This document shows positions 23,192 to 63,224 of a stretch of DNA of 64,000 bases, one piece after another. The translations under genes were made by a program, and so were the position numbers. The notes beneath the pieces are model-generated. The model saw nothing but the letters and a program-made list of their open reading frames with translations, made no database searches and was not told where the DNA came from. This DNA is from Alphaproteobacteria bacterium (GTDB taxonomy: Bacteria > Pseudomonadota > Alphaproteobacteria > JBFXJJ01). The stretch lies in assembly GCA_050175015.1 (NCBI GenBank), contig JBFXJJ010000008.1, positions 12,415 to 76,414 of the forward strand, written 5' to 3'. Position 1 is the stretch's first letter. Every line of letters begins with the position of its first letter.

Positions 23192-23269
23192 GCACTCGTA
23201 GCTCAGTTGGATTAGAGTGTCGGCCTCCGAAGCCGAAGGTCGCAGGTTCGAATCCTGTCGAGTGCGCCA
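23192..23269 (+). tRNA. tRNA-Arg (anticodon CCG)
   Basis: Manual cloverleaf. Acceptor GCACTCG/CGAGTGC, D-arm GCTC..GAGT, anticodon stem TCGGC/GCCGA with loop CTCCGAA, T-arm GCAGG-TTCGAAT-CCTGT, discriminator G and encoded CCA. Confidence 0.85.
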
Positions 23270-23632
23270 CTAATAATTTACTGATTTAATTAATTTATTT
23301 TTGTTTTTCGTTTTCGTGAAACAGCCCACAAAAACCCCTTGCGGGACAGTATGGGGACAAAATTTTTAAAAAATCTTGATAAATACTAATTATCTACAAC
23401 AATTAACAATTAAACCTTCAACGCAAACTTAAGCTTTTCCAAAAGATTTAGATTGTTGTTTTTTGTTGTTTATGGTTATTGATTGTCCCTTAGTTGTCCT
23501 TTTTAATACGTATTGCTAACAATATATCTTTTTAAAACAATATATTAGTGTATAAGATTGTCGGAATTATACTCTAATTGATTTATTTAAAAATATAATC
23601 TATAATGATGTGCGATTTTTAAAGGAGAGGTT

Positions 23633-24697
23633 ATGGCAACGATTGAAAAAAGAGAAACAGGCAAAGGGCTTCAGTATCGAGTTAAAGTTCGCAAAAAAGG
23701 CTTTCCAGCTCAAACCGCAACATTTTCTCGCTTAACAGATGCTAAGAATTGGGCGAATGAAATTGAAAGTTCTATTGTTAATAACCGCTATTTTCCAACC
23801 AATGAGCTTCGCAAAAGAACGATATCCGATTTAATTGAAAGATATATCAAAGAGGTTTTATCTAAAAAACCAAGACGAGCTTATGATGCTGTTCCTAAGC
23901 TTCGTTGGTGGCAGGAAAAAATTGGTTTATACACTTTGGCAGATTTAACAACCTCACTTCTTTTCGAAACAAGACAAAAACTTTTTGATGATGATATTAA
24001 AAACGGTAAGAAAAGAAGCAATACAACAGTTAATAAATATGCAACGGCTTTAAATACGGCTTTAAACATTGCGGTTAATGAATTGCAATGGCTTGAAAAT
24101 AATCCAATGAATAAGATTAAGAAGTTGAAAGAGCCAAGAGGCAGGGTTCGTTATTTATCAGAAGAAGAAAAAAACTCATTATTGAATGCTTGTAAGGAAA
24201 GCAAGAATCCGCATTTATTTAATGTTGTTTATCTGGCTTTAAGCACAGGAGCTAGATATGGCGAAATAATCAACTTAAAATGGGAGCAAATCGATTTTAA
24301 CCGCAAAGTCATCACTTTATACGAAACTAAAAACGGCGAAATAAGACTTTTGCCTCTGGTGGGCAAGTCTTATGAATTAATGAGAGAGCATTCTAAGGTT
24401 AGAAGAATTGATAGTGATTTGGTTTTTCCAAGTGCGATAAAACCTCAAAAGCCGATTGAAATAAGAAAATCTTGGCTTAACGCTCTTGAAAAAGCAGGAA
24501 TTGAAGATTTTAGATTTCACGATTTAAGACATTCAACTGCTTCTTATCTTGCTATGAATGGAGCAACTCTAGCCGAAATTGCAGAGGTTCTAGGGCATAA
24601 GACTTTGGAAATGGTTAAAAGATACTCACATCTATCCGAAGCCCACACCGCAGGCGTTTTAGAACGAATGAATCAAAAGTTTTTAGGTGAAGATTGA
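23633..24697 (+). CDS. int: Tyrosine site-specific integrase
   Basis: 354 aa. Catalytic region HDLRHSTASYLAMNGATLAEIAEVLGHKTLEMVKRYSHL (R..HxxR..Y). Confidence 0.85.
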   Translation: MATIEKRETGKGLQYRVKVRKKGFPAQTATFSRLTDAKNWANEIESSIVNNRYFPTNELRKRTISDLIERYIKEVLSKKPRRAYDAVPKLRWWQEKIGLYTLADLTTSLLFETRQKLFDDDIKNGKKRSNTTVNKYATALNTALNIAVNELQWLENNPMNKIKKLKEPRGRVRYLSEEEKNSLLNACKESKNPHLFNVVYLALSTGARYGEIINLKWEQIDFNRKVITLYETKNGEIRLLPLVGKSYELMREHSKVRRIDSDLVFPSAIKPQKPIEIRKSWLNALEKAGIEDFRFHDLRHSTASYLAMNGATLAEIAEVLGHKTLEMVKRYSHLSEAHTAGVLERMNQKFLGED

Positions 24698-24835
24698 GGC
24701 TTAACTTAAATATAAAAAATTTAATTTTATAGTAAAGTCAGTTAAAAATGATGCTAAAGTTAGGCAAACAAATAACTAAAAACAACAGAAAATTATCTTG
24801 TTTTCATAAGCATTTTATTTTGATTTGACATGTGT

Positions 24836-24881
24836 CTCATAACCTGAAGGTCGTAGGTTCAAATCCTGCCCCCGCAACCAA
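24836..24881 (+). repeat. 3'-half fragment of a tRNA-Met (initiator-like) gene; candidate att site, left end of the inner element
   Basis: CTCATAACCTGAAGGTCGTAGGTTCAAATCCTGCCCCCGCAACCA matches the anticodon loop (CAT) to CCA end of tRNA-fMet. No 5' half upstream. An imperfect copy lies at 53947-53995. Confidence 0.6.
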
Positions 24882-24909
24882 AATTAGATTGTAATATCAA
24901 TAAGTTAGA

Positions 24910-24937
24910 AAAATAAAAAGCCTCGAGAATCACTCGG
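24910..24937. terminator. Hairpin terminator flanked by A- and T-runs (bidirectional)
   Basis: AGCCTCGAG-aatca-CTCGGGGCT then TTTTT, preceded by AAAATAAAAA. Lies between the integrase and the convergent 580-aa gene. Confidence 0.5.
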
Positions 24938-25055
24938 GGCTTTTTGCTGTTGCCGCACCATTGCCGCAACGTGTGTTAATATCCATTAAAAAACTACCCA
25001 CAAGATTTTTGACATGGGATTCTTTTATATTGGAGATAGGGAGTTTTATATGAAA

Positions 25056-26798
25056 TTACATATTACAAAAGCGATACCAGTAATTAGCTGGAACGAGGGT
25101 TCTAAAGTGTCTATAAGCAATAAAATCTATTCCAAAATAACCATAATTATATGTTGGAGATTTTTCAACGCAATCGAAATGATCTAATTCTAAAAATTTT
25201 AGCATTATTTCTTTATAAGAGTTTATATCGACTTCTAATTTAATAGGTGCTTCAGAATGTCCTGCTTTATGGTGCAATGGAGAAAAATATAAATCATTTA
25301 AATCTTTACTTAAAGGATACCAAAGTTGAGCAGTAGTTTCTTTACATACCCCACTCATCATAACATACAAATTTTTGTAAAACTCTTCTTGTTTTAAGTT
25401 TACTGCCCAACCAGCAAAAGTTGGTATAAGCCAAGACATATTAGTTAATTTTTTAAATACGTCTTCATTTAAACTTTCTGTTCTAGACGTAATCAAATCG
25501 TCAAAATTATCAGTTGATATTGGATAAAAATAACGCTTAGACATTGTATAACCAAAAACTTCAACAATATCTATAAGCCATTGTGAAGCTATTTTATTTT
25601 CTCCCATCAACATTAGTAAAGACATAGCAAGTGTTATATCTATACAATTTTCATCAAAGCAAGGAGAATTAGATATTGAGTTGTTTTGTATAATTCCTAC
25701 AAGCAAAGATGTTGCTTTTTGGGCAGTTTTGAATTCTGAATAGGTGTTGTTGTTTGAAAAATAAAAATGAGAAAGTCCAATAGAGGATACTAATCCAATA
25801 ATTTCAAAAACTAATATACTAAACAGGCTACTATCTCTTGTGTATCCAGATAAGCCGTCTCTAACCATACAGTGGCGTTCAATTTTAGTTAGAAACTTTT
25901 TAGAAATATCTGAGTAAGTATTCCAAATGTTTTTAAAAGATGGTAAAAGTTTTTTTCTATCTCTCTCTGAAAGTTGGTTTAATAAGTTCCAAGACCAGAC
26001 AACAGCTCTTTCTGCTCCAATTACAGCTGGTTTTATATTGCCCTCATTCTCTGCCCAGTTAGTTAAAAGCCGAGTTGCTAAGTTTACACGGACAAGAGCT
26101 TTTTGTATTTCTTTTACTTTTTTCTTATCTTTTGTAAAAACACCATTTTTATCAAAATTTAATTGCCTTTGCAGAATATTATAAAAGTGTTTAAGAGAAT
26201 AATCAGGTTCACCAATTAAAGCTAGTGTTCTACGAAGATCATTACGCTCATCTTTGTCAAATAAGTTTTCATTTAAAAGATATTTTTGAATAAAGTTTGA
26301 TATTTCATCAGCACCCCAGAAATCAAACTCTGCATCATCTTTATGATCATTTGTATATCCTGCCCAATTTGGCTGAATTTCTTCTTTTAAGTCCCCAGTT
26401 GTGCCAAGAACAATTTTTTTAGGAAGTCTTTGTGCATTTGAGGGAACGCAACTTCTTAGGTAAACATCAAAAATTTCGTTTAGTGATGGGCGAACATCTT
26501 GTGTTCCTGTGTCCCAATTAGAACGACCAATATCTCCTTGTTTGAGAACGAATAAGAATAATTTCTCTATATTATCTTTGGGGTCAATACCAATGGCAGA
26601 TAAATCAACACCATTTTGCCTAGTCCCTCGTTGCGTTTTAGAGGTTGGTATAATTCCCATAGAATTTAATAAATCTGGAAGCAGCTTATCAAACTCGTCT
26701 CTTTCTTTTAATGTTCTTAAATATGTGGAAATAATTAATTTCATAAGATTTAACCCTGCTTTTCTTTTCTTACATTTATCAAACAAGATCTGCGGCAT
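25056..26798 (-). CDS. Hypothetical large protein; possible N-terminal PD-(D/E)xK nuclease-like motif
   Basis: 580 aa. GVDLSAIGIDPKDNIEKLFLFVLKQ resembles a D...ExK restriction-endonuclease-fold core. The rest is unrecognised. Confidence 0.35.
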   Translation of the reverse strand: MPQILFDKCKKRKAGLNLMKLIISTYLRTLKERDEFDKLLPDLLNSMGIIPTSKTQRGTRQNGVDLSAIGIDPKDNIEKLFLFVLKQGDIGRSNWDTGTQDVRPSLNEIFDVYLRSCVPSNAQRLPKKIVLGTTGDLKEEIQPNWAGYTNDHKDDAEFDFWGADEISNFIQKYLLNENLFDKDERNDLRRTLALIGEPDYSLKHFYNILQRQLNFDKNGVFTKDKKKVKEIQKALVRVNLATRLLTNWAENEGNIKPAVIGAERAVVWSWNLLNQLSERDRKKLLPSFKNIWNTYSDISKKFLTKIERHCMVRDGLSGYTRDSSLFSILVFEIIGLVSSIGLSHFYFSNNNTYSEFKTAQKATSLLVGIIQNNSISNSPCFDENCIDITLAMSLLMLMGENKIASQWLIDIVEVFGYTMSKRYFYPISTDNFDDLITSRTESLNEDVFKKLTNMSWLIPTFAGWAVNLKQEEFYKNLYVMMSGVCKETTAQLWYPLSKDLNDLYFSPLHHKAGHSEAPIKLEVDINSYKEIMLKFLELDHFDCVEKSPTYNYGYFGIDFIAYRHFRTLVPANYWYRFCNM

Positions 26799-28465
26799 TC
26801 ATAATCAGCACTGTTTAAAACAAATCTTCTTGGTAGTGTAAAACCAGATGAAAACTCCATATACCCTGTTGGTTCAGAATAGTTGCCTTCTAAAAGACTA
26901 AAGTTGGCAATACCAGCTTTTATAGGAACGACAGCACAAATTTGCCTAACAATAGATTTTTTTTCTCCTTCTTCCATGCTTTTTTGCATTCTTTTGTTTT
27001 CTGCCTTATGGAAGGCTTCTTTCATATTTTTAGACGGTTTTAACTCTTGTATCTCGGGCAACACGTCTAAAGCACTCATATAATTATTGATAAAGCTTGA
27101 AGCATCTTCACAAAGTTTTTTTATTTTTCCATTTTGTTCTGATAAACTGATATTGTTGAGTTTTTCAATTGTTAAAATAGGATAATCTAGACCAAGTTCC
27201 TCTGTAAAGAGCTCAAACAAAAGACCATATTTGTTATCTATAATTTCTGGAATTAGTAGTGATGAAAATGACGAGATGGCTTGCTCTTCATTTATAATAA
27301 CTCCTAGACATCTTTTTATGAAAAAAAGAAAATCTTTATCATTCATATTTTTGACAATATCTAAATCAAAAATAAGATTGTTTGCTTTAGAAACCGATAA
27401 TTTCTCTAATATTTCTTTTACAAACAAAACATAGCACATACTTTCTTTTGTAAGCCATTTTGTAACAAGATTAGAAATAACGTTAGGGCTTTCAAATAAC
27501 TTATAAAAAACATTATCAAAGCACTCTAATATTTTTATGTTCAATTTTCTTGAATCGTTATTTTTAACCCAATTTTCTATATAAGATATAGCTAATTCAA
27601 TATCACCACCTTCCGCTATTTTCTGTAAAACATAGTCAAAGTTTTGTATCGCACCTTTAGCAGAAGGTTTTATATATAATAAACAATTTAATAATGGCTC
27701 AAATAACCCTTGATGACGAATAGCTTCATCATTTCTAAACAGCAAGTCAGCTATAAAAGCTAAAGCCGTATCATCTTTAGCTTCTCCAAGCTCCAAAAGT
27801 TTTTTTGTTGCATTAATCCACTCTATTGAAGCTTCGGCTAAAGCTTGTATAGTTGCGTTTTTTATAGAAGTATCTTGAGATGATAGCCCTCTATTAAATT
27901 TATCCCATACAGCATCTTTATGTTTATCAGAAACACACTGTAATCTTGCTAGTCTTCCTAAAAGCCAAATATTATTTTGTGCAAGAAAATCACTACCGTT
28001 AAACACCGTTTCTAATATAAGATTTATAACTATATCAGGTTCTTTTTTCGCCCAAGCAATAACAGCTACATTGTATATTGAAGAGGTTTCTTCTGTAAGG
28101 CTTACTTTTAAAAGGTTGATAATATCACTACAGACATTAATGTCATCTCTAAGCCTAACCTCTAGTTTGTTTGGGAAGACGCCAGAGGCATAATCATTGC
28201 AAGTCTTTGGGTGTTGAACTCTGCATAGTTCGATTAAATTTTCTGCATTTAAAGATGTGATGAAAGGTAAAGCATCTCCTACTAAATGCAATACCTGAAA
28301 TAAATCAAAAGTATTCTCATTTATAACATCACAAGCAAGCTTAAAAATATCATTATGGTTATGAACTTTTGCTAAAAAACGACCAACAATATCTTTGTTT
28401 TTTTGTCTCCATAAATTATGGGCATGCTCAAAAATTTTCTCTGGTTTTATAGTTTTATTTTTCAT
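26750..28465 (-). CDS. Hypothetical alpha-helical repeat (HEAT/ARM-like) protein
   Basis: 571 aa, helix-rich with no catalytic motif seen. Overlaps the downstream gene by 49 nt. Confidence 0.35.
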   Translation of the reverse strand: MKNKTIKPEKIFEHAHNLWRQKNKDIVGRFLAKVHNHNDIFKLACDVINENTFDLFQVLHLVGDALPFITSLNAENLIELCRVQHPKTCNDYASGVFPNKLEVRLRDDINVCSDIINLLKVSLTEETSSIYNVAVIAWAKKEPDIVINLILETVFNGSDFLAQNNIWLLGRLARLQCVSDKHKDAVWDKFNRGLSSQDTSIKNATIQALAEASIEWINATKKLLELGEAKDDTALAFIADLLFRNDEAIRHQGLFEPLLNCLLYIKPSAKGAIQNFDYVLQKIAEGGDIELAISYIENWVKNNDSRKLNIKILECFDNVFYKLFESPNVISNLVTKWLTKESMCYVLFVKEILEKLSVSKANNLIFDLDIVKNMNDKDFLFFIKRCLGVIINEEQAISSFSSLLIPEIIDNKYGLLFELFTEELGLDYPILTIEKLNNISLSEQNGKIKKLCEDASSFINNYMSALDVLPEIQELKPSKNMKEAFHKAENKRMQKSMEEGEKKSIVRQICAVVPIKAGIANFSLLEGNYSEPTGYMEFSSGFTLPRRFVLNSADYECRRSCLINVRKEKQG

Positions 28466-28480
28466 TATTTTGTAAACTCT

Positions 28481-28975
28481 TTAAGGATTTCTTTGTTTCA
28501 ATATTGTGCATCGCTTCAAAAAAGATTCTGATAATATTTTTTCCTTGTTTGTTGCAGATTTTTTATATTGTTCATCTGATATTACGAGAACTTTTTTAAG
28601 GTTTTTAACTCCTAACGAAACAAGCCATTCAAAATATGGTTTTAGATGGTTGCTTATTTGCTCAACATTTGTTTGTTGACCGTTTTCCTTCATAACTATT
28701 ATTAATGTTAAATTTAAATTTTGGTAATAAGCATAAAAGAATGCTTTGATTAATGAACCGACAAAAGCTTTTCTATCCGTTTTTCGTTCACTTTCAAGGA
28801 TAATCCAGTTTTTTCCCTCATTATCTTTTATTGAAACATCTGGATAGTAATCATTACTATCTGAAATCTTTTCACCTTTTGTGTTTATGGTATAATTATC
28901 TGGTATTATATGCTCAAAATTTTTAAATTCTTTATCTTTCATAAAAACCCCTAGTTTTTTTAAATAAAATACCAT
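28481..28975 (-). CDS. Hypothetical protein
   Basis: 164-aa ORF, first gene of the three-gene co-directional cassette. Confidence 0.3.
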   Translation of the reverse strand: MVFYLKKLGVFMKDKEFKNFEHIIPDNYTINTKGEKISDSNDYYPDVSIKDNEGKNWIILESERKTDRKAFVGSLIKAFFYAYYQNLNLTLIIVMKENGQQTNVEQISNHLKPYFEWLVSLGVKNLKKVLVISDEQYKKSATNKEKILSESFLKRCTILKQRNP

Positions 28976-29053
28976 GAAAAATGATTTAATTCTATTAATA
29001 ATAGTAATGGTTAAACGTCCTATTTTTTCCTCTTTATATTAGCGGGGGTGATT

Positions 29054-29190
29054 AACCCTCTACGTCTCTACAAGTGTTGATAACTGCGACTTACAGAGAA
29101 AATAACCCGCTACACAAAATTTATGATGTAGAGGGTTCGCTTAGAGCGTTTGTCATTGGTTTTGCTGGCTTGTAGCAAGGTAGAGGGTTG
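29054..29190. repeat. Iteron cluster (CCCTCTAC / GTAGAGGG), copy 1
   Basis: CCCTCTACGTCTCTACAA followed by inverted GTAGAGGG copies at 29127 and 29181, plus a degenerate CCCGCTAC. Homologous to 48711-48845. Confidence 0.5.
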
Positions 29191-29194
29191 AGGT

Positions 29195-29494
29195 TTAAGC
29201 AACCTTGTTGTAAGGAACAATCGCTTCAAGTTCGCTTGCTATCTTTCTTTTGGTTTTGATAAGCTCAAAATCTTCTTGAATGCCTAAAAAATAGCCTTCG
29301 GACAAACCAAAATATTTAGTAAGTCTTAAATCGGTATCTGCGGTTATGCCTCTCTTACCATTGATAATATCGCTAATGCGGTTTTGAGGTATCCCCAGAG
29401 CCTTCGCAAGAGAATTTTGAGATAATCTTAAGGGCTCTATAAACTCTTCCTGTAAGACTTCGCCAATGTGGGGTATGTCGATATATTTTTCCAT
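29195..29494 (-). CDS. higA: HigA-family antitoxin (XRE-type HTH)
   Basis: 99 aa. LAKALGIPQNRISDIINGKRGITADTDLRL HTH. Sits downstream of the toxin, as in higBA. Confidence 0.8.
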   Translation of the reverse strand: MEKYIDIPHIGEVLQEEFIEPLRLSQNSLAKALGIPQNRISDIINGKRGITADTDLRLTKYFGLSEGYFLGIQEDFELIKTKRKIASELEAIVPYNKVA

Positions 29495-29564: not shown

Positions 29565-29846
29565 TTAGTGATAATCAACAATTTCAACATTATGAGCGTC
29601 TTTGTCCTGCCAAACAAAACATATTCGCCATTTGTCGTTTATTCTGATTGAATGTTGCTCTTTTCTATCGCCTTTCAATGCCTCAAGATTGTTAGATGGA
29701 GGGATTTTTAAGTCCTCAATCCTTTTAGCCCTATTTATCATCGCAAGCTTGATTATAGCTCTTCTTTGAATATCAAAAGGAAGCTTTTTTGAGGTTTCTC
29801 CGTGCCAAATCTTGGCTGTTTCTTTGCATTTAAAAGATACTATCAT
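29565..29846 (-). CDS. higB: HigB-family toxin (RelE/ParE superfamily killer protein)
   Basis: 93 aa. ...WRICFVWQDKDAHNVEIVDYH C-terminus typical of HigB. Confidence 0.8.
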   Translation of the reverse strand: MIVSFKCKETAKIWHGETSKKLPFDIQRRAIIKLAMINRAKRIEDLKIPPSNNLEALKGDRKEQHSIRINDKWRICFVWQDKDAHNVEIVDYH

Positions 29847-32800
29847 TTTTTAACATTCTCTACGGCAACAATAACTTCGCTTTTGACTTGTTTTGCGTTT
29901 TGTTCGATTGCATCAAGATAGTTTTCACCTAATTGTCCTTTTATAAACTCAATTTCTTTAATAAAAGCAGTGATTTCTTTTTCGCTACTCTGATTGCCTA
30001 TTTCCTGAGAAGAAAGTCTCCTTAATGAATATTGAGATAAGGTTTTATATTCTCTTAAATCCTTAATCAAAACTCTTATAAATGATGACAAACTGCTAAG
30101 CCTATCCTCATAAAAACGTATAGATGCATTAAGATTATTTATAGCTTTAGTTTCAAGTGAGTTTTCGTTGCTTTTATGATGAAATTTAGGCTTCTTTTCT
30201 TTGATGTTTTCGTATGTATCCCAAAACATATCAGAATGTTTGATTTTAGGTTCAGTTTGTTTGCATTCAATATTAGGCAACAGGCTTTCAATATTTATAT
30301 CAAAAATATCAGGCTTTTTATCTCCTTCAACCTTTGCTAGTTGAACAAAAAACCCTAACGCTTTTTTTCTAACTACAATGACTTGATTTTCTTTAAAGTT
30401 TTTAGCCGTCTTAACTCTGTTAGGCAGATATTTAATCTTTTTAAAAATTTCAGGGTATTCTATCCTAATATCCTCAATTTTATTTCTAATTTTGGTGATG
30501 ATGCTTTCTTCTTCATTATCTTCAGGGTTTGAATTTATGCGTTTAAAAAGCTCTGAAGCAGAAGGAATTTCATCTTGGGTAAAGACTTTTGAATCTTCAC
30601 CAAGCGTATTATGAATAAGAAACATTTTCTGGCTTGCGATTTCTTTACTTTTTATAACATCAGCACCTTTTAGGGTTGGAAAGAAGTTGCAGATATAAAG
30701 CTCATCAAAAACCTTTTTGCCAATACGGTTAATTCTTCCGATCCTTTGAATAACCCTAGTTGGGTTCCAAGGAATATCATAATTTATGATTGTTCCTGCT
30801 CGATTTAGATTGAAGCCTTCAGAAAGCTTATCGCTGGCAATAAGAATGGAGTAATTATCTTCCTGTTTGCTTTTAGCAATGCTTGCATCAAAATTTTTAT
30901 AAAGTGTTTCAGCCGTTTTTTTGTTTAAATCACCAGTAAAGGAAAAAACTTTGTTAGGAAAAGCATTTTCAATCGTTTCCTTAAGGTGAGCAACTGTATC
31001 TAAATACTCGGTAAAAACAATAAGTTTGCGGTTTTGCTCTTTTTTTATACTTTCTTTTAAAAAATCAATTAGCTTTGCCCTTTTAGGATCAGAATTTGCT
31101 AAATCAAGATTATCTATTTCTTTTTTTATTTTAGCAAACAAGGCTAAATCACTATCTATATCTTTTAAGAATTGATTTTTATTATAAAAACTATTGATGT
31201 CATAAATTCGGTTATTTTTTGGAGCTTTCTTATCGAGCAGTTCTTCAGCAAATTTTTCTAAGTGTTCTTCAATAGTATCTTCATCTTCAGAGTAAATTTT
31301 ATTAATCAGCTTTCTATCAAGAATATATTTGCCATTTGAATTTTCGATAAACTCTTTAATTTTGATATGGGCTTTTTCAAAGTTTTCAATACTTTTTTTG
31401 AACGCTCCAAAAGAGCTTTCAAACCGTTTTACAAGGAGTCTTCTCATAAAGTCATATAAGTTTCTTTGTTGTTGATATTCCCTGTTATCATCTTGGTTTA
31501 AGTCTTCAAGATTAAGTTTTTTCTCATAGTTAAATGGCTGATAAATTGCCCCTTTAAATTCCCCCACTTCTGCAAAATACTCTTTAATGACCTTGTCGTA
31601 AAATTCTGATTGCTTTTCGTTTAACTCAAAAAGCAATTCTTGAGGGTCTTTAACCTTTGAAAGTTCTTTAACCTCTGTTCGATATTGATAATCGTTTTTA
31701 AGGTCTATTCGGTTTCTTCTAATTAGAATTGGCTCAATAATCTGCCTGATTTCGTTTGATAGTTCGCTTAAGCGGTTTTTAACTTTTTTAATATCGGCAT
31801 ATTCTTCTTTAAAAAGCTCAAAATATTGCTTTTTAGATTTGGCAAGTTTTTCAATATCGTTAGAGTTATGATACCTAGAAACATAAGCAAGTTTGTTAAA
31901 AAGGTTTTCATAGCTTTTAAATCTAGCTTCAATGTTATCATCAAGTGTTATTAGAGATTTTCCTGGAACGATAAAAAGTTTAAGGAGAGAGAATATATCC
32001 GCAGGGCTGTTATTAAATGGTGTGGCGGTTAGCAAAATCACAATTTTGTTACGACAAATCATGTTTAAATATTCATAATCTTGCGTATCTTGATTGCGGA
32101 AACGATGAGCTTCATCAATAACCACAACTTCAATATCCTTACCTTGATTATTCATATATTCAGCAATTTCTTCAAGCTTGCCTGTTGACCTAACCTCCCA
32201 GTCAAAGAGTTCAAAATCACTTTTGTATTTTTGCCAGCCAGCGTTAGCATTAGCATCGCCAATTAGTCCAGGAGGGCAGATAATCATTCCTCTTTTGCCA
32301 ATATTCTTGGCAATGGCACTTGCTATAATCGATTTTCCAAGCCCCACCACATCGGCAATAATAACGCCATTATAGTTTTCGATAATGGTTAGGGCTTGAT
32401 TGACGGCATCAAGCTGATAGGAATAAGTCTTATAGCCCTTATCTTCTAAAATTCTGATGACTTGAGGTTTTATTTTTCTTTGTTCTTGAAGGTCTAAATA
32501 GGTTTTTAAGATATAAGCATACGCTTCAAAAGGCGTAACATTTGCAACTTGAGATTTATTGTTTAGAAAATCGATTAAAAATTGCTTCCTTGCATTATCT
32601 TCAGTAATTTTAACAGAGGTTTCCCAAAGCTCATCAAAGTAGCTTTCTGCATCTTCGGTGCCATAATCAGAAATTTCAACATTAAACTCGTTTTGTTTTT
32701 CAAGTCCTGCTTTGGTTAGATTGCTAGAGCCCGTAATAAACTTAGTATCAGAAATATGCTTTAACTGGTCATTGATTTTGAAAAGATAAAGTTTTGCATG

Positions 32801-33238
32801 GTTTGGCTCTAGGGTTTTTCTGATATGAAGCTTATCTTCTAAAATAAGTTTTAAGAAAAATTCTGCTTGTTCAAAAAAGTCTCGGTTGTCAAGGTCTTCA
32901 TTGTTAAGGGCTTTGTCTAAAGATGCAAAAAAATCATCAGCTTTTTCGGCATTAGAAACATCAGAATTTGAGCCTGCAAACTCGCATATCTTGCCAAGAA
33001 AACTATCGACTTCAAGTCCAACTAGAATTTTAACTGTAATGTTATCTTGTTCTTTGAGGCTTTCGTATAATTCTTTAAGTCCTGAGAAATAGAAAAAACC
33101 AACTAAAAACTTAAGCTCTTTGCTGGAGGTAACAAGCTGTTTTATTCTTGTTTTAAGATTTTTGGTATTTTTTTGATTGGTGATGAAGTTATTGGTCATT
33201 GTCTTTTGCTCGTTGAATTTTGGGGAAGTGTTTATCAA
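29843..33238 (-). CDS. Fusion protein: N-terminal phospholipase-D-family (HKD) nuclease domain plus SNF2-family helicase (SNF2_N + Helicase_C)
   Basis: 1131 aa. HKD motif HAKLYLFKIND...FITGSSNLT. Helicase motif I VVGLGKS, motif II VVIDEAHRFRN, motif VI RVIQRIGRINRIG. Confidence 0.8.
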   Translation of the reverse strand: MINTSPKFNEQKTMTNNFITNQKNTKNLKTRIKQLVTSSKELKFLVGFFYFSGLKELYESLKEQDNITVKILVGLEVDSFLGKICEFAGSNSDVSNAEKADDFFASLDKALNNEDLDNRDFFEQAEFFLKLILEDKLHIRKTLEPNHAKLYLFKINDQLKHISDTKFITGSSNLTKAGLEKQNEFNVEISDYGTEDAESYFDELWETSVKITEDNARKQFLIDFLNNKSQVANVTPFEAYAYILKTYLDLQEQRKIKPQVIRILEDKGYKTYSYQLDAVNQALTIIENYNGVIIADVVGLGKSIIASAIAKNIGKRGMIICPPGLIGDANANAGWQKYKSDFELFDWEVRSTGKLEEIAEYMNNQGKDIEVVVIDEAHRFRNQDTQDYEYLNMICRNKIVILLTATPFNNSPADIFSLLKLFIVPGKSLITLDDNIEARFKSYENLFNKLAYVSRYHNSNDIEKLAKSKKQYFELFKEEYADIKKVKNRLSELSNEIRQIIEPILIRRNRIDLKNDYQYRTEVKELSKVKDPQELLFELNEKQSEFYDKVIKEYFAEVGEFKGAIYQPFNYEKKLNLEDLNQDDNREYQQQRNLYDFMRRLLVKRFESSFGAFKKSIENFEKAHIKIKEFIENSNGKYILDRKLINKIYSEDEDTIEEHLEKFAEELLDKKAPKNNRIYDINSFYNKNQFLKDIDSDLALFAKIKKEIDNLDLANSDPKRAKLIDFLKESIKKEQNRKLIVFTEYLDTVAHLKETIENAFPNKVFSFTGDLNKKTAETLYKNFDASIAKSKQEDNYSILIASDKLSEGFNLNRAGTIINYDIPWNPTRVIQRIGRINRIGKKVFDELYICNFFPTLKGADVIKSKEIASQKMFLIHNTLGEDSKVFTQDEIPSASELFKRINSNPEDNEEESIITKIRNKIEDIRIEYPEIFKKIKYLPNRVKTAKNFKENQVIVVRKKALGFFVQLAKVEGDKKPDIFDINIESLLPNIECKQTEPKIKHSDMFWDTYENIKEKKPKFHHKSNENSLETKAINNLNASIRFYEDRLSSLSSFIRVLIKDLREYKTLSQYSLRRLSSQEIGNQSSEKEITAFIKEIEFIKGQLGENYLDAIEQNAKQVKSEVIVAVENVKK

Positions 33239-34646
33239 TTCCTAATGTCTGATATATGATTGTTTTTAAAACCAAATCTAATCTGTTTGATAGCATACTT
33301 AAAGCTTCCCAGTTTAATGTTTCATTTTTAAAATAAAAAGTGGTGGATATTTCAGAAGAAGATAACTTTCTAGGTCTACCGTTTTTATATGGGTGCGTGA
33401 TAAGGTTTCTAATAAGAGAAACTTGTTTTTTAATATATTCTTTATAACCATATTCAGGAAATTCTTCAGGATAAAGAGTACGTTTTATCATGCTTTTATG
33501 CCAGTCTCCACATAATCCCCCATAAATAAAAATGGTTTCAAAATTATCATTATTTATAAGCTCTAGCCCATTTTTAACATCAACGCCTGATTTGTTTTTT
33601 TTATGTTCAATGTTGCCGATAACTTCTAAAGCTTGAATTTGTGAAATAAGGTAAGTATCTAAAAAATTGTTTTCTTTGCTTAAAATTGTAACGATTAAAA
33701 ATCTTAACTTATTAAAATTATCAAACCATTTTTGCATAACAGCTTTTAAAGCATTTTTTATATCATCATAAGGAATATCTAAATCTAAATAAACGTAATC
33801 TTTTTCGTTTTTAATATTTGGGTTTATAAAATAATAATCATAGCCATTACAATATTTTTTAATCTCTAAATTTTGATTGCATAACAAGGAGAAAAAAGCA
33901 TTTATCTTAAAAATAGTTTGCTTATAAAAATCTAAAGATTGCTCTTCTTCTGTTTCAACACGAATGTAGGTGTCGTTATAAAAACGGCTTTCAAGAATAT
34001 TTTCATAAGAAATACCACTCTTTGAGAATATTGTTATAAAGCATTTAGCATTATCTATGATAATATCAAATTTATTAACTTCCCTTGGAATATTGATTTT
34101 TAAAAATTCTGCATTATCACTGCTTGTTTTGTTTGATTCAGAATTTAAATATTCTAGTCTAAAATATTTACCAAGCCATAAAAATTTATCAAGATTATCT
34201 ATATAAACATCTAAACTTTTAATTTTATCATCTTTTTTTAAAAACTTATCTTTTTTAGGTTTTTTGTATATTTTTGCTAGTATTTTTTTTTCAGAATCAT
34301 CTTCTATATTTGCTAAAACGCTATCTATTTTAGGGTGATGATATACTTCTTTTAAATAAAATTTTTCAAAATTTATATCTGTTTTTTCCCCACCTGTTGT
34401 TGAGGAATTGATAAAGGTAAAATAAAAAAGCTGGTTTGAATAAGATGCCGAATTATTTCTAAAAACACCAAATAATTCAGCCCCGCCAAAACCATAGCGG
34501 CATAATTTTTTAACATCTGTTTCGTTTAAGGTTAGTCTTGGCTCGCCGTCCTTAAATATCAAGATTGCAGATATTTTCTTTTTTGTTATTTTTTTTGGGA
34601 ATGGTTCATAAACAAAACCTTCGTAAATTCCATTTAAATCAACCAT
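33189..34646 (-). CDS. Hypothetical protein with C-terminal HEPN-type Rx4H motif (Abi-like)
   Basis: 485 aa. SLIRNLITHPYKNGRP near the C-terminus. Overlaps the PLD-SNF2 gene start by 50 nt. Confidence 0.4.
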   Translation of the reverse strand: MVDLNGIYEGFVYEPFPKKITKKKISAILIFKDGEPRLTLNETDVKKLCRYGFGGAELFGVFRNNSASYSNQLFYFTFINSSTTGGEKTDINFEKFYLKEVYHHPKIDSVLANIEDDSEKKILAKIYKKPKKDKFLKKDDKIKSLDVYIDNLDKFLWLGKYFRLEYLNSESNKTSSDNAEFLKINIPREVNKFDIIIDNAKCFITIFSKSGISYENILESRFYNDTYIRVETEEEQSLDFYKQTIFKINAFFSLLCNQNLEIKKYCNGYDYYFINPNIKNEKDYVYLDLDIPYDDIKNALKAVMQKWFDNFNKLRFLIVTILSKENNFLDTYLISQIQALEVIGNIEHKKNKSGVDVKNGLELINNDNFETIFIYGGLCGDWHKSMIKRTLYPEEFPEYGYKEYIKKQVSLIRNLITHPYKNGRPRKLSSSEISTTFYFKNETLNWEALSMLSNRLDLVLKTIIYQTLGIDKHFPKIQRAKDNDQ

Positions 34647-34685
34647 TTTTACACACTTTTGGCATTTTTTTGATTGGTGATGAAG

Positions 34686-36422
34686 TTAGTCATATTTTAA
34701 ATCTATTTTAATTCCTAATAATTTTTCTGTATCGCTATTATCGGTCAGTTTAAGAATTATGTTATCATTAATTAGTTTTTGTTTTTCTCCGTCACTTATT
34801 TCAGTAATGTCATCAATCTGATTTTGGTTAAGAGTAAGTATGTATTGTTTGTTATGAGTATTAAAAAGATTGTTAGCTTCAGATAACATAGAAATTTTTT
34901 GTCTTGGGTCAATATCACTAAAAAGACGATTGTCATGAAATAAAAAATCTATTTTATGCCTGCTTCCCATAAACAATAAGGTTAAATCATAACAAAATAT
35001 TTTAGCACTTCCTATTCCGTCAGAGGAATCACTTTCAATTTTTGCGTCAAAATCATATCTTAATTGATTAGTTCCGCTATTGTTTTTAACAGTAATTCCT
35101 GATGTTGCATCAGGGTATATTTTTTTAGCCAGCCTTCTAAAAAAGCCGTCCATATTTTTATCAGAGTTTTCCTCTGTTGAGTTAAGATAATCAACTGTTT
35201 TCTGTTCTTCTTCAACAAACTGTTTCTTTATATTAAGCTCTTTATTTTCATACTCTTTTAATAAGCTTTCATATTTTAAATAATCATTTTTTTGATTCTT
35301 TTTATCGCTAAGTTTGTTGTTCAGTTTTAAAACCACATCAACCGCATTATGAGCATTAAGATATTGCAATTTCTGGTCTAATTTTTTCTCCCAATCTTTT
35401 TTGTCATTATTAAAAGCTGTCAGATTGTTTTGAATAGCCAGTTTTTGTTCGGCAAGCCTTTTGGCTCTGTTTGATAACAATTGCTTATTAAAAACTTCTA
35501 ACTCATCTAAGGTTTTAGATAAATTGTTACTAAAAATTATCCGAGCTTCTTCATATATTGACGTTATTTTTTCTTTGCTTAAGTCTGGAGTGTTTTTTAG
35601 GCTTTGCTCAATGTTTTTTATTTGATATGAGCTTGTAGCAATTTGATTGTTGATATTATCTAATTGTTGCTTTATTTGATTCGCTTCCTGCTCTGTTTGG
35701 TAATAATCTTCAGCAACTTTTGTTTCATTAAGTTTATGCTCTAACTCTTTTATTTCTTCTTCCAAATTTTTCTTTGCAAGCCCAAGGTCTTTAGAGCCAA
35801 TAAAAAATTCTTTTAATACAGGGTCTTTTTTTATCTGCTTGGTTAAATTGTTTATATTATCTAAATCTTTCTTTAGCATCTTTTTTGTTTGAATAAGTCC
35901 AACATCTAATCCCAACAGAAAAGCATTGTTTAGCAATTTTTGATATTCTGTTCCTTTCTTTCTACCGTCAGGATCAGCAAAATTAGAATACGCACCCTTA
36001 GTTCTTCTTATAAAAAAGGGGATTAAAGTTCTAAAAGTTAGATATTGAATTCCAGATGGAATTTCAAAACAAAGCTTTTGCATTTTTTTATTAAAATTAT
36101 CAACCGACAACTCTTCTTTATTCATAAAAATTTTATTATAGTTATCTATAGCACGTTCAACTTTATAATTTTCTCCAGCTATTTCAAATTCAAGATAAAA
36201 AATCCAATTAACGAGTTTTTCTAGAAAATTACCTTGAGGCGTTGCACCTAAGCAAAAATGAATTATCTCTATCATCAAAGATTTACCAACACCATTATAG
36301 GTTTTATCTTTTGATTCGTTGGAGGTATCTTTTTTGCAGGCAACAATAATATTTAAACCCGTTTTTTTAAACTCAACAGTTTTAAAGGTATCTTTGTTTG
36401 CTGATAACGAAATTAAACGCAT
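34686..36422 (-). CDS. SMC/RecN-like coiled-coil ABC ATPase (Lamassu LmuB-like)
   Basis: 578 aa. N-terminal Walker A NGVGKSLMIEI, long coiled-coil middle, C-terminal FHDNRLFSDIDPRQ signature/D-loop-like segment. Confidence 0.5.
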   Translation of the reverse strand: MRLISLSANKDTFKTVEFKKTGLNIIVACKKDTSNESKDKTYNGVGKSLMIEIIHFCLGATPQGNFLEKLVNWIFYLEFEIAGENYKVERAIDNYNKIFMNKEELSVDNFNKKMQKLCFEIPSGIQYLTFRTLIPFFIRRTKGAYSNFADPDGRKKGTEYQKLLNNAFLLGLDVGLIQTKKMLKKDLDNINNLTKQIKKDPVLKEFFIGSKDLGLAKKNLEEEIKELEHKLNETKVAEDYYQTEQEANQIKQQLDNINNQIATSSYQIKNIEQSLKNTPDLSKEKITSIYEEARIIFSNNLSKTLDELEVFNKQLLSNRAKRLAEQKLAIQNNLTAFNNDKKDWEKKLDQKLQYLNAHNAVDVVLKLNNKLSDKKNQKNDYLKYESLLKEYENKELNIKKQFVEEEQKTVDYLNSTEENSDKNMDGFFRRLAKKIYPDATSGITVKNNSGTNQLRYDFDAKIESDSSDGIGSAKIFCYDLTLLFMGSRHKIDFLFHDNRLFSDIDPRQKISMLSEANNLFNTHNKQYILTLNQNQIDDITEISDGEKQKLINDNIILKLTDNSDTEKLLGIKIDLKYD

Positions 36423-36655
36423 TTGCTTATTATTCCTTGTTTTTCTTCAATAACGCCAATCGAAAAAAGAAAAACTATAGTTAAAATCAAATTGTCGAAA
36501 CTATGCTTGGCGAAGTAGTTTCCGCTTTTAAAATCAAATTGATATTTTTTCCATAAATCGTCAATGGTTTTAGGTGTTTTGAGCTCTTCAATGAGATAAC
36601 TACCTAAACCGAGTAGGGACTGTGAAAAATTCAAATGTTTTTTTGGTATAAGCAT
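36413..36655 (-). CDS. Small hypothetical protein (LmuC-like middle gene?)
   Basis: 80-aa ORF overlapping the ATPase start by 10 nt and abutting the upstream gene. Confidence 0.3.
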   Translation of the reverse strand: MLIPKKHLNFSQSLLGLGSYLIEELKTPKTIDDLWKKYQFDFKSGNYFAKHSFDNLILTIVFLFSIGVIEEKQGIISKCV

Positions 36656-36657
36656 AA

Positions 36658-37593
36658 TTACTCTTCTGGTTCTTCAAAAATATCGCAGCTTTCAAAATAT
36701 TTTGCCATAATTTGAATAGCCGCTGGTTGATATACATTGTTACTTTTAGGACATATATTTTCTAAAATCCCAAAAAATATATTATCACCTATGTTGTTTT
36801 TATCAATCATTTCATTTTCGAATTTAAGTTTGTTTTGTTGATAAATATCGCTTAAGGTTTTTTTTGTTTCTTCCGCTAATATGCTTTCTCTTTCCTCAAA
36901 AAACTTGTCTATTTGACCTATTGCAGAATAGGCGTTATCTAGCAAATTTTTTACGTCTAGGCTGATATTATTAATTTTGATTTTTTTATTCCAATCAGGG
37001 GCGATTAATTTGTCATCTAAAATCGTTTTAACGGGGATTTGTGCGATATGGTTTATTACTTCATCAAGAATAGAGTTATTAAGAATGTGCATTTTTGAAG
37101 GGTCTGGCAAATACCCTACAACATCTAACATTTGTTCTTCTGTTAAATCATTAAAAACCATATTTCCTAAATCTTTTGCTGTTAAAAAGCTACATTCTTT
37201 TAGGTTGTTAGTTGTTTTAATGATTCCAATTTTTATCAAACCGTCAGCATTAACACCCTTATATTTATCATTAACAACAAAAAAGAAATTCTCTATCGGC
37301 GACCAATATTTTTTCAATCCGTCAAAATCTGTTTCTAGTTTATTTATCGCTTCAGGATATGATTTGGTTATGTCTTCAGGAGCATAAACTTGATAATAGG
37401 TTGCTGTTTTTGTGTTGCAACCATCATTCTTTCGGTCTCCAATATTGCCCCAAGGTTTAAGTTGTTGGAAATCAGAATCTCTATAATTCATAATTTTGGT
37501 AAATATTTTTTCAAACTCACTGCCATCAGATTCATAAATTTTGTTTTGAAAAATTTTAATAGCATAAGCTTTTTCTTGAGGAGTCATATTCAT
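36658..37593 (-). CDS. Hypothetical protein (candidate effector partner of the SMC-like ATPase, LmuA-like position)
   Basis: 311-aa ORF, first in the 311-aa / 80-aa / ATPase order that mirrors lmuA-lmuC-lmuB (ddmABC) organisation. Confidence 0.3.
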   Translation of the reverse strand: MNMTPQEKAYAIKIFQNKIYESDGSEFEKIFTKIMNYRDSDFQQLKPWGNIGDRKNDGCNTKTATYYQVYAPEDITKSYPEAINKLETDFDGLKKYWSPIENFFFVVNDKYKGVNADGLIKIGIIKTTNNLKECSFLTAKDLGNMVFNDLTEEQMLDVVGYLPDPSKMHILNNSILDEVINHIAQIPVKTILDDKLIAPDWNKKIKINNISLDVKNLLDNAYSAIGQIDKFFEERESILAEETKKTLSDIYQQNKLKFENEMIDKNNIGDNIFFGILENICPKSNNVYQPAAIQIMAKYFESCDIFEEPEE

Positions 37594-37602
37594 TATTCCT
37601 TA

Positions 37603-40600
37603 CTAAACACTCTTGGCTTTGGAGATGCGGTTATAGACAAGCTGGCAGACGGAGCGGTAAACTTCTTTTCGTTCATCTATAGTTAGCCCTATAGCATCAA
37701 AAACAATGTCATCAAGTTCTTTTCTATCGGCAAGAGGTTTTGGCTCTTGCTCTTCAATTGGAATATCGCTTTTAGGGTCAATCCCACATTCTTCGAAAAT
37801 GTTTTTGATTTCTCGGTTGAATAAATTGTTTGTATTTAATTTAGAAAAATTAACACAATCATCTTTTAGTAAGATAAAATTATTTAAATCGGGCTTTTGA
37901 GTTTTGAGAACTCCTCCACCAAAATTTGACCTTCCATATAGTTCTCTAAATAAGTTGGTTGTTGTGGAATTTAAAAATAAAAGGGTGTTTATTTTGTTAG
38001 TTTTACAAACTGTAATTTCGAAGAAATTATCACCAACCAATCTATCGCTATTTAAAAAAGCAATATTTCTATCATTATGGGCTATAATCCAAAGAATTTC
38101 TGCTTCTTTTCTATCGCCTAAAAAATACCATAACTTACGATTTTTTACGGTTTCAATGTTATGAAATCCTGTTAGCTTTTTCCCTTTATCTTTACCTTGT
38201 TTGATTTCTATTTCTGCGATTTCTCCCCATTTGATATATTTTAAGGCGTTCGTTCCTTGTAGTTCAGTTTTAGATTTATCACATAAAAAAAGAAAACCTT
38301 TTGGTTTGATTTTTGAAACATCAATTTTTTTAAGCTCATTGGTTTTCATTGTTGCGGGTTTTAAAAACTCTTCTTCAATGCCCCATTCTTTGGCTTGGGT
38401 ATCCGTTAAATAGAAAAATTCATTACAGCCTGTTGTTATGCCTCTTCTTACTTCGGCAACATCTTTTAATTTGACTAGCTTATCTTTGCCTTTTTCTAAA
38501 ATGGTAAAGAAAATATCGGGGGCTCTTAAATATTTTCCACCCCATTTATCGCCGATATATTTGTTTTCATCAACGCCTGCTTCATATAATTCATCATAGT
38601 TTATGCTATAAACCCTAAAGGAACCAGTTTTTAAAATGCCGTTAGTGTTTTCAATTTCAAGCAGGTTTTCAGTTACAACCACTTCTTCAAAAGGTTTTTT
38701 AAAGGCAACAAATTTAACTTTTTTATCTTTCTTTTGAAACTTATCTTCTGGGGCAGAAAAAATAGAAATTATGGTATTAACATCAGCGTTGGCAAAGCTT
38801 CGTTTAACCTGATTATCAATAATATAGTGCATCTCTACATTGTTTAGCAAAAACTCCTGAAGCCAAGCACCATAACCGACATCAAGCCAAGAGTTAGAGC
38901 AAACAAAACAATGTATGCCTTTGGGGTTTAAAATTCTTAAAGTATGTAAGTAAAAATAAACATATAAATCAGACTTTTTATCGGTTTTGGTTTTGGCTTT
39001 AAAATAACTTGGGTAATCAACCTTAACCGTTTGTTCCAACAAGTCCTTGTAATCTTTGTTGTCTTTTACCAAGCCATTAGGGTCGCTTATTTCCTCTTGC
39101 CTGACATAAGGCGGGTTGCCGATGATTATATCAAATCCGCCTTTTTCACCAAAAATCTCTGCAAACTCAATGTTCCAGACCAGCGGGTGATTGTCGGTTA
39201 GATTTTTAGCTTCTTCTTGTAATAAGGCTATTTCCTCTCTTAATTGCTCTTTTTCTTTTTCTAGTGAGGCAGAATTTTCTTTTTTTGTTTTTTCCCCAAA
39301 TTCAATTAAACTTCCCTGTTTGGAGTAAGTTTTCATATACTCATTTAGCTTTTCTTTTTTGTTTGTTATTTCATCATGGAGCAAATCTAAAAAAAGGTTT
39401 TTTTCCATATTTCTTATAGAGTGAATATCTACGCCGTTTTTGTTATTAAAAAAATCGATTTTAGCATTTTTCAGCTTGGTAACTTTGGCTTTTATGCTTT
39501 GAGAAATGCTCGCGTGTCCTTGTATTGGAAAAAGCTTGCCTCCAATTCTCTGCACCAATGAATCCCCACATCTAACCTTAAAGTTAAGGCTTGGAAGGAG
39601 CGGTTCAAAAGAAGTGTTTTTATCCTCTGGCATATCAATAAATAATGACAGCCAAAGCCTTAATTGGTTTATCCAAACTGCCCAGCGTTTAACCTCAACG
39701 CCGTATAAGGATTTTGCAATGATTTCCTTTTTGCGGTCAAAGGCGGAATAGTTTTTATATTCATCAGGGCAGTTGTTTCTGGTTTGCAGGCTTCCTAAAA
39801 GCTCATCTAAAACCTGCATCATGCCAACTTCAAAAGCACCCGAGCCTGCGGCTGGGTCGCATATTGTTATATTTTGCAAAAGCTCAATTAGTCCTTTGAT
39901 TTCTTTGGCGGTAAAATCGCCTTGCTTTTGGCATTCGTCAAACTCTTTATCAACACCCATTTCTCTAAAAATAAAATGATATAGGTCTTGTTTCGTGCAA
40001 TTAGAGTTTTTCTCAAGCCATTTAACCAGCGATAACCTGCACATTAAATCAACTTCAGTTCTTGGGGTATAAACCGCACCATCTTTTTTATTAACTAATC
40101 TTTCAAAGATAATTCCTAAAAATTCAGGGTTTAGTTCAAGCTCTTCATCATAATTAGTGTTTTCTTCAATCGTAAAATTATATTGAAACAAAAACTCAAA
40201 AAAGGCTTCAATCTCTTTGTCAGGGATATAAGCCGAAGCTAAATCGACCCCTGTTTTTTGCTTAAATAATTCACCATTTAAAAAAGGTGCCATTTGCAAG
40301 GTTTTCTGCGTTTTTTCAGAAAAATCATTGTTGCGGTATTTAACTTGCGTTCCTGGAGTGCTGTTCAAAGCTTCAAAAAACAATGGTTCTAACCAGTTTT
40401 TATAAAACTTATTATCACCATTAAACTTTGCTTTATATTCTAACCAGAAATTTTGCAAAAATTCTTGGTCTCCGCCAAGCCAGCCTCTTTTCTGCACAAA
40501 GCCGATAAATATGGTTCTAATCACAAAGAGCAGGGCAAAATCTTCTTTAGTTGAGGTATCTTCAATTTCTTTAACGCTTTTGGCAATTTGTTCAAACTTG

Positions 40601-53946: not shown

Positions 53947-53995
53947 TTTGCCTCATAACCTGAAGGTCGCATGGTTCAAATCCTGCCCCTGCAAC
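53947..53995 (+). repeat. Imperfect tRNA-Met 3'-half fragment; right att of the inner element
   Basis: CTCATAACCTGAAGGTCGCATGGTTCAAATCCTGCCCCTGCAACC. Compare with 24836-24881. Confidence 0.55.
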
Positions 53996-54139
53996 CTAAG
54001 AAGCCCGCAGTCTCAACATCTTACGGGCTTATTTATCTGAAAATTATGTGTAAAAAAATACCAAAACTATGCTAGCGTAGTATGTAAAAGCAAGTTTTAT
54101 CAACTTTGGAAAGTTTCAATCAATGATATTAAGACAAAA

Positions 54140-62810: not shown

Positions 62811-62950
62811 AATGTCTCAAGAGTCTTGAAAAGTCTTAATAATTCTTAATTTTTCTTAAAAAATCTTAAAATTTCTTAAAGTGTTTCAAAAAGTCCTAAA
62901 AATTCTTAAAAAATCTCAATTTGTTTCAAATGTCTTAAAGTTTTTGAATT
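62811..62950. repeat. About 14 degenerate tandem repeats of roughly 10 bp (TCTTAAAA / TCTCAA / TTCAAA), phased A/T tracts
   Basis: Read directly: ...GTCTCAAGAGTCTTGAAAAGTCTTAATAATTCTTAATTTTTCTTAAAAAATCTTAAAATTTCTTAAAGTG.... Confidence 0.6.
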
Positions 62951-63177: not shown

Positions 63178-63224
63178 CTCCGAAGCCGAAGGTCGCAGGT
63201 TCGAATCCTGTCGAGTGCGCCACT
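63178..63224 (+). repeat. attR: 47-bp direct repeat of the tRNA-Arg 3' half
   Basis: Identical to 23225-23271. Confidence 0.85.

Follow-up and report, generated by a model that had tools for sequence, protein, structure and literature searches.

Does the three-gene cassette that occupies the left end of an integrative element, itself nested in a larger island, encode a new anti-phage system, or a known one that public annotation has left without a name? The question concerns positions 25,056 to 28,975 of a 64,000-nucleotide (nt) stretch of contig JBFXJJ010000008.1 from an Alphaproteobacteria bacterium (GenBank assembly GCA_050175015.1), the whole of which is referred to here as the window. 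All three cassette proteins carry the label 'hypothetical' in the public record. A first-pass annotation made from the sequence had recognised no known system in the cassette and had proposed it as a candidate for a novel one. This proposal gives way to a simpler assignment, as the two large genes, oloA and oloB, match the profiles of the Olokun system over their full length. The locus very probably comprises an Olokun anti-phage system of the standard type and, directly upstream, a small gene, p153, that is unrelated to it.

Assignment of the large gene pair to Olokun

The 571-amino-acid (aa) protein matches the PADLOC profile PDLC03925 (OloA) with an E-value of 2.5e-64 and 216.6 bits, its residues 10-568 aligning with profile positions 22-595 of 596. 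The 580-aa open reading frame (ORF) that follows it matches PDLC03926 (OloB) with an E-value of 7.5e-152 and 505.2 bits, residues 19-577 aligning with positions 1-553 of 556. Pfam, NCBIfam and PHROGs gave a significant match for none of the three cassette proteins, and PADLOC alone was informative, for the two large ones.

Gene order was compared with 80 Olokun loci from other species, each taken with 6-kb flanks. In the window oloA lies upstream of oloB, adjacent and on the same strand, an order shared with at least 66 of the 80 loci, where matches to the OloA query stand directly upstream of oloB. In most of the 80, the start of oloB is only a few nt away from the end of an ORF of approximately 560-700 codons, and the two usually overlap by 4 nt. 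Because standard defence profiles recognise the oloA-oloB pair, there is no new system here; judged by its sequences, the pair is Olokun, a known two-component anti-phage system, and is not novel. Olokun was reportedly named by Millman et al. in 2022, in the Cell Host Microbe article 'An expanded arsenal of immune systems that protect bacteria from phages'.

The window pair shares with described Olokun systems the full-length profile matches for both proteins, the tight abutment of oloA and then oloB, a PD-(D/E)xK core with all family invariants, a partner from a HEAT/adaptin-like family, and a location in a defence island on a mobile element. It differs in being divergent, with OloB at most 52% and OloA about 30% identical to anything in the databases searched, and in its host, a low-GC (guanine-cytosine) alphaproteobacterial metagenome-assembled genome. 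Further differences are a 5-nt spacer where a 4-nt overlap is usual, and a small nuclease-like gene 15 nt upstream that has no counterpart in the 80 other loci.

Gene models and spacers

The ORF listing re-found three co-directional minus-strand frames at 28481..28975 (164 aa), 26750..28465 (571 aa) and 25056..26798 (580 aa), reproducing exactly the coordinates given in the first-pass annotation. Homology search returned full-length homologues for the 571-aa and 580-aa frames, with E-values down to 1e-186, and by our own estimate the chance of a stop-free frame of about 570 codons is approximately 1e-20 at the local GC content of about 30%. Full-length homologues and this very low chance probability mark the large ORFs as genuine, and all three frames are read as real genes, not chance frames. 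The oloA product is identical to NCBI AB7U85_06620, and its proposed length of 571 aa stands; the lengths proposed for the other two proteins do not.

For oloB, several observations point to a start at Met19 of the 580-aa ORF. This methionine is nearly invariant as the first residue of the family in a 46-member alignment, the PADLOC OloB match begins at the same residue, and the ATG is preceded, at a distance of 9 nt, by the purine-rich stretch AAGCAGGG. An exact-sequence look-up at NCBI found the 562-aa product (MGD9638715.1, AB7U85_06615), and the 580-aa version was absent. Started at Met19, position 26744, oloB encodes 562 aa and leaves a 5-nt spacer after the oloA stop (26750). The 49-nt overlap first described between the last two ORFs is thus, like the 580-aa length, attributed to the choice of the longest ORF. 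The small ORF is annotated from Met12, and its relatives align from the same methionine, giving a protein of 153 aa in place of 164 aa, encoded at 28481..28942 and named p153 accordingly.

The gap between p153 and oloA measures 15 nt, with neither a promoter nor a terminator evident in between. A promoter and terminator scan of positions 24700-29300 gave matches no more numerous than in shuffled sequence, and the 252-nt intergenic region upstream of p153 (Table 1) is the only room for a promoter serving p153-oloA-oloB. Translational coupling of the three ORFs, as first suggested, is plausible, the spacers of 15 nt and 5 nt being of a fitting size. Given the short gap and the lack of a detectable signal within it, p153 is probably co-transcribed with oloA-oloB.

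Nuclease domain of OloB

Homology search returned 193 homologues of OloB, the best at 52% identity. In the 46-member alignment E32, E35, D37, Q61, G63-V64-D65, G70 and K86 are invariant, and V84, G88 and D89 nearly so, in the numbering of the 580-aa ORF; in that of the 562-aa protein E14, E17, D19, Q43, G45-V46-D47 and K68 are the corresponding invariants. The window OloB retains every one of these invariant and nearly invariant residues, which cluster at the N-terminus. AlphaFold2, run on the family alignment, gave a model with a mean predicted local distance difference test (pLDDT) score of 88.4 that comprises an alpha/beta N-terminal domain and an all-helical C-terminal domain. Foldseek matched the N-terminal domain to the MspJI restriction endonuclease (4f0p) with a probability of 1.00 over 164 columns; MUS81 and the SPARDA nuclease were weaker matches. 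For the C-terminal domain the matches were tetratricopeptide repeat (TPR) and designed helical-repeat proteins, all weak (E of 7e-3 or higher), and a sequence search of solved structures found no relative of OloB. Conserved residues and modelled fold both indicate that the OloB N-terminus is a PD-(D/E)xK nuclease domain with an intact predicted active site.

The nuclease core singled out in the first-pass annotation holds in part. The stretch proposed there includes the invariant G63-V64-D65, and on the family invariants and the MspJI-like fold it does contain the predicted catalytic aspartate, D65. Its 'ExK' (E78-K79), however, is unconserved and falls in a variable loop; the invariant lysine is K86, within the motif FVxKQGD.

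MspJI, of the MspJI/Mrr type, is the best structural match for the OloB N-terminal domain, and the two share the layout of an aspartate followed by a lysine on neighbouring strands. In contrast to MspJI, to which its sequence identity is about 10%, OloB lacks an SRA-like modified-base reader domain, carries a fused helical domain of about 400 aa, and relies on a second protein, of a HEAT-repeat family, as its partner. The catalytic motif of MspJI is QxK, and OloB has VxK in its place.

OloA as the partner subunit

The Pfam HEAT_2 model matches 9 of 30 members of the OloA family, with a best E-value of 9.3e-7, which supports a helical-repeat (HEAT/adaptin-like) character for the family. The earlier description of the 571-aa protein as HEAT/ARM-like is therefore sustained at family level, and not by any Pfam match of the window protein.

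Within the same loci (L004-L083), OloB is 40-51% and OloA 23-31% identical to the window proteins. Because OloA diverges much faster than OloB across the same genomes, we infer that it may be the subunit that regulates the complex or sets its specificity, by sensing infection or choosing the target. A subunit directly in conflict with phage proteins would be expected to diverge faster in this way.

When OloA from these loci is compared with the window protein, the best-conserved part is the C-terminal segment of about 120 residues, not the helical repeats.

Family, fold and genomic contexts of p153

In Pfam, PADLOC v2, NCBIfam and PHROGs, p153 has no match. A word-indexed search returned five relatives and an exhaustive profile search 121 cluster representatives, nearly all of them stand-alone proteins of about 150 aa. 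The AlphaFold2 model of p153 has a pLDDT of 91.4, and its top Foldseek matches are all PD-(D/E)xK enzymes (BstEII, SfsA, PaqCI, BsmI, BamHI, Can2 and Hef), albeit weak ones, with a best E-value of 6e-3 and a template modelling (TM) score of 0.41. A sequence search of solved structures found no relative of p153. Close relatives have the motif Y-x-P-D ... I-L-E-S-E-x-K in common; among 48 diverse members D35 and K58 are invariant and Y32, P34, E50 and R57 nearly so; K54, the lysine of the 'ExK', is unconserved.

Like its top fold matches BstEII (9ibq), BamHI and SfsA (4dav), p153 carries a PD...E motif on adjacent strands. Unlike them, it places its lysine in a 'DRK' at the start of the next helix and not in an ExK triplet, and it has no methyltransferase partner; the matches are weak and come with no membership of a shared sequence family. 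A nuclease-like fold is likely on the strength of the model, whereas catalysis is a prediction from the fold and the conserved residues. That p153 is an OloB nuclease domain copied as a free-standing gene was rejected, hhalign of the two family profiles giving a probability of 0.3%.

The genomic contexts of the family were collected from 37 loci, comprising 34 metagenomic ones fetched with a 14-sequence alignment and three found earlier. A conserved partner gene was sought by all-against-all clustering of the 243 neighbouring ORFs and rejected, as only near-duplicate contigs recur. Some neighbours are of a defence type. In locus L001 the p153 relative follows a TIR protein and precedes a NERD-UvrD helicase and an EcoRII-C/Dcm pair, and in L089 it stands beside a nucleotidyltransferase fused to a DpnII-like nuclease. 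Other neighbours are transposases, DUF2779 and an M78 peptidase, and relatives also adjoin genes for threonyl-tRNA synthetase (ThrRS), malate synthase and cytochrome-c biogenesis (CcmH).

In two loci, at L086:4668-6351 and L096:1639-3169, the p153 relative is the first cassette, divergent from an integron integrase. Against TIGR02249, which has a cut-off of 265, the two integrases reach 456 and 474 bits, and they share 64% identity. Directly after the p153 relative of L086 comes an attC-like site (GGCTAAC...GTTGGGC), succeeded by a run of small co-directional ORFs. This cassette position beside integron integrases indicates that the p153 family travels as an integron cassette. Neither phages nor plasmids are a usual home of the family, which the phage and plasmid search placed on one IMG/VR contig and on no plasmid; the 335-aa divergent neighbour of the relative on that viral contig is not an integron integrase.

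Two distant relatives of 308 aa each, P0160 and P0170, are fused to an N-terminal P-loop kinase-like domain (GxPGxGKT). They have ESSSSGDRK in place of the ExExK stretch, and may be non-catalytic or use different residues.

Could p153 alone constitute a new defence or toxin module, as a minimal PD-(D/E)xK nuclease, so that two independent defence systems lie side by side? This is possible but rather unlikely. The confident restriction-endonuclease-like model, with D35 and K58 invariant and P34 and E50 nearly invariant, favours the proposal, yet the structural matches are all weak (E of 6e-3 or higher, TM of 0.41 or lower) and K54, the lysine of the classic ExK, is not conserved in the family. 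The defence-island context in the window and the neighbours in L001 and L089 suggest a defence role; many relatives, however, lie beside housekeeping genes (ThrRS, malate synthase, CcmH), and PADLOC is inconsistent, since 3 of the 48 members examined have one isolated weak match each, every one to a different model. Integron cassettes in L086 and L096, and the fusion of some relatives to a kinase-like domain, are set against the absence of a conserved immunity or antitoxin partner, the absence from plasmids and the single viral contig. That p153 founds a whole family of minimal self-mobilising nuclease modules, which integrons and defence islands would carry as single-gene cassettes for phage defence or toxicity, is a more speculative extension and distinctly unlikely. 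A role as a lineage-specific accessory that modifies Olokun specificity is the less likely function for p153.

Linkage between p153 and Olokun

The three genes could instead form a genuine three-gene system in which p153 is an obligatory third component, a second nuclease or a regulator, of an Olokun variant. Their common direction, the gaps of 15 nt and 5 nt, and the position of the only sizeable intergenic region ahead of p153 would all suit such a system, but its distribution does not. Searched by tblastn with p153, none of the 80 Olokun loci encodes a relative, the closest (51% OloB identity) included; conversely, with OloA, OloB and 120 OloB homologues as queries, none of the 37 p153-family loci encodes OloA or OloB. 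The trio does occur on a second assembly, in the only other such contig (L118), which carries an identical 164-aa ORF with OloA- and OloB-sized neighbours. This contig is probably from the same organism and, being sequence-identical, does not count as independent evidence. Moreover, p153 relatives travel alone as integron cassettes, and the Olokun of other species works as a two-gene operon. An obligatory three-gene system is thus very improbable. The first-pass annotation had asked whether the trio is conserved as a unit in other genomes, and the two sets of loci indicate that it is not.

The reading retained takes p153 as a mobile gene complete in itself, next to Olokun in the window by position only, as argued by the lack of linkage together with the occurrence of its relatives as integron cassettes. 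It would adjoin Olokun here because defence and accessory cargo packs tightly.

Proposed mechanism and comparison with other systems

The literature search turned up one 2025 preprint (bioRxiv 10.1101/2025.07.10.664194) and no other paper devoted to the mechanism or structure of Olokun. The preprint classes Olokun among the PD-(D/E)xK systems and calls OloA adaptin-like. There, the Pseudomonas system PfOlokun is described as a 2:2 OloA-OloB complex of approximately 278 kDa with the two nuclease domains predicted to lie side by side (bioRxiv 10.1101/2025.07.10.664194). In vitro, PfOlokun degraded T7, SECphi17 and SPO1 DNA but not E. coli genomic DNA, and nicked plasmid; it was active at high protein concentration only, and active-site mutations in OloB broke the complex (bioRxiv 10.1101/2025.07.10.664194). 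Every operon in the panel of the same study protected against at least one phage (bioRxiv 10.1101/2025.07.10.664194).

In the model proposed for the window, OloB would be the DNA-cutting effector, joining an N-terminal MspJI/Mrr-like PD-(D/E)xK endonuclease domain to a C-terminal helical domain. OloA would be a HEAT-repeat scaffold in complex with OloB, either gating the nuclease or directing it to phage DNA. As in the Pseudomonas system, a heterotetramer would form from two subunits each of OloA and OloB, with the nuclease domains side by side, and this complex would degrade phage DNA while sparing host DNA. The p153 protein would be an independent mobile single-gene module, acting apart from Olokun if it is active at all. 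Within this model, family membership, gene order, predicted catalytic residues, folds and the non-linkage of p153 and Olokun come from the present analysis, and the 2:2 stoichiometry and selective cleavage come from the literature.

Hachiman HamAB and Gabija GajAB resemble Olokun in placing a PD-(D/E)xK or related nuclease in a hetero-oligomer whose larger partner is thought to control firing. They differ in that OloA is described only as adaptin-like in the preprint and is not among the Walker A partners listed there (bioRxiv 10.1101/2025.07.10.664194). If OloA indeed has no nucleoside triphosphatase motif, its control of the nuclease would not proceed via ATP-driven DNA surveillance as in HamB or GajB.

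Several points weigh against the Olokun reading of the locus or narrow it. For the defence phenotype, the complex and its cleavage activity, the reading extrapolates from relatives with no more than 52% identity. The helical-repeat character of the window OloA derives from matches elsewhere in its family and from the literature, the protein itself having no Pfam match. OloB is without a textbook (D/E)xK triplet, a conserved valine standing two residues before K86, and the assignment of its second acidic ligand to E32/E35 or D89 is a guess. The preprint places the OloA contact in an 'N-terminal helical domain' of OloB (bioRxiv 10.1101/2025.07.10.664194), and the OloB model disagrees with this wording, the nuclease core being N-terminal and the large helical domain C-terminal. 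Finally, the 15-nt gap between p153 and oloA, with no evident signal inside it, leaves room for co-expression and for a functional link specific to this lineage.

Genomic context of the cassette

The cassette lies within two nested integrative structures (Table 1). The 3' half of tRNA-Arg, at 23225-23279, recurs at 63178-63232 with 95% identity (direct-repeat family D3) and delimits an outer island of approximately 40 kb. A 27-nt direct repeat resembling a tRNA 3' end, its two copies 93% identical, delimits an inner element of approximately 29 kb. The inner element carries an integrase (52441-53745, minus strand), a MobA/VirD2-type relaxase (46507-48036) and a primase (48666-50624), and is an integrative mobilisable element nested in the outer island. 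The 55-nt tRNA-like fragment around its left repeat has the look of a CAT anticodon loop and received no tRNA call from ARAGORN. About 170 nt inward from the inner left repeat comes the 3' end of oloB, in agreement with the first placement of the cassette at the left end of the inner element, inside the att site. The broader expectation that the edge of an integrative element would carry cargo for anti-phage defence, built on a helical-repeat protein and a PD-(D/E)xK nuclease core, is likewise upheld.

Table 1. Coordinates of the Olokun cassette, its neighbours and the element boundaries in the window
Feature	Position	Strand	Description
oloA	26750..28465	-	571-aa helical-repeat (HEAT/adaptin-like) Olokun partner; PADLOC OloA profile
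oloB	25056..26744	-	562-aa predicted Olokun nuclease, start at Met19 of the 580-aa ORF; PADLOC OloB profile
OloB PD-(D/E)xK nuclease domain, residues 1-157 of 562	26274..26744	-	Model: alpha/beta, helix-strand-strand-strand-helix-strand
OloB C-terminal all-helical domain, residues ~164-562	25056..26255	-	Secondary structure of the model
p153	28481..28942	-	153-aa stand-alone protein, likely nuclease-like fold; outside canonical Olokun
Intergenic region, 252 nt	28943..29194	-	Upstream of p153, downstream of higA
HigA antitoxin and small toxin-sized ORF upstream			Inner-element cargo
SNF2-PLD(HKD) helicase (1131 aa) and 485-aa protein, overlap 50 nt	29843-34646		PADLOC C3a139 'HKD+Snf2' and DrmD-like matches; weak ApeA-like match
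DUF2326 ATPase (PDC-M68B, E 9.5e-90) and CTD10 protein (PDC-M68A)	34686-37593		PADLOC; ABC-three-component (ABC-3C) candidate defence pair
Type IIG restriction-modification enzyme (1194 aa, Eco57I/MmeI-like) and 340-aa DUF5655 / PDC-S18 protein, overlap 38 nt	37603-42172		
Tiamat TmtA-like protein (E 2e-68) and DrmD-like SNF2 helicase (E 6.9e-111), overlap 32 nt	55796-62522		Between inner and outer right-hand repeats
tRNA-Arg(CCG)	23192..23269	+	ARAGORN; only tRNA in the window; integration target of the outer island
Tyrosine integrase	23633-24697		Adjoins tRNA-Arg(CCG)
Left inner direct repeat	24856..24882	.	Inside 55-nt tRNA-like fragment 24836-24890 (families D3, D6)
Right inner direct repeat	53973..53999	.	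Adjoins integrase 52441-53745(-)

The remaining genes of the inner element are almost all defence cargo. That OloA-OloB serves the mobile element itself, in maintenance, competitor exclusion or DNA processing, is the most improbable of the readings: the pair does sit at the very edge of the element and relatives of OloB are carried by 35 plasmids, of which 18 are conjugative, but the Olokun family is defined by phage protection and is a PADLOC defence system, every operon in the preprint panel defended against at least one phage, and the neighbours here point the same way.

The gene pair at 29843-34646 may be a two-gene defence module without a system name. A 41-nt direct repeat, 88% identical between 33151-33191 and 34648-34688, is common to the 5' ends of two adjacent genes: the first copy falls within the N-terminal coding region of the SNF2-PLD gene, and the second is intergenic, immediately upstream of the gene for the 485-aa protein. 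Such a repeat could be a junction for module swapping or a regulatory site that both genes share. The TmtA-like protein combines a sacsin/HATPase N-terminus with a type IV restriction-like C-terminus. A methyl-accepting chemotaxis gene at 44193-46355 contains a 300-nt tandem duplication at 45366-45998, 86% identical with a spacing of 333 nt, which corresponds to the double Cache sensor domain of the protein. At 62814-62943, about 230 nt inside the outer right att repeat, at least eight copies of a 10-bp unit (TCTTAAAAAA-like) form an array of iteron-like or bent-DNA character.

Significance

The value of these results lies in annotation: of three proteins publicly labelled 'hypothetical', two can now be named as an Olokun pair. 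For p153, what remains is a small uncharacterised family of about 120 clusters, which holds the residual novelty of the locus and is a modest lead. Its confident restriction-enzyme-like model and its occurrence in integron cassettes make it an inexpensive choice for screening single genes for defence or toxicity. Should p153 prove to be such a nuclease module, the locus would hold Olokun and a second, undescribed defence gene. For the Olokun family, the faster divergence of OloA fits the idea of a specificity or sensor subunit, and a divergent alphaproteobacterial member with a predicted intact active site could serve comparative work on the trigger of the system and on its discrimination of self from non-self.

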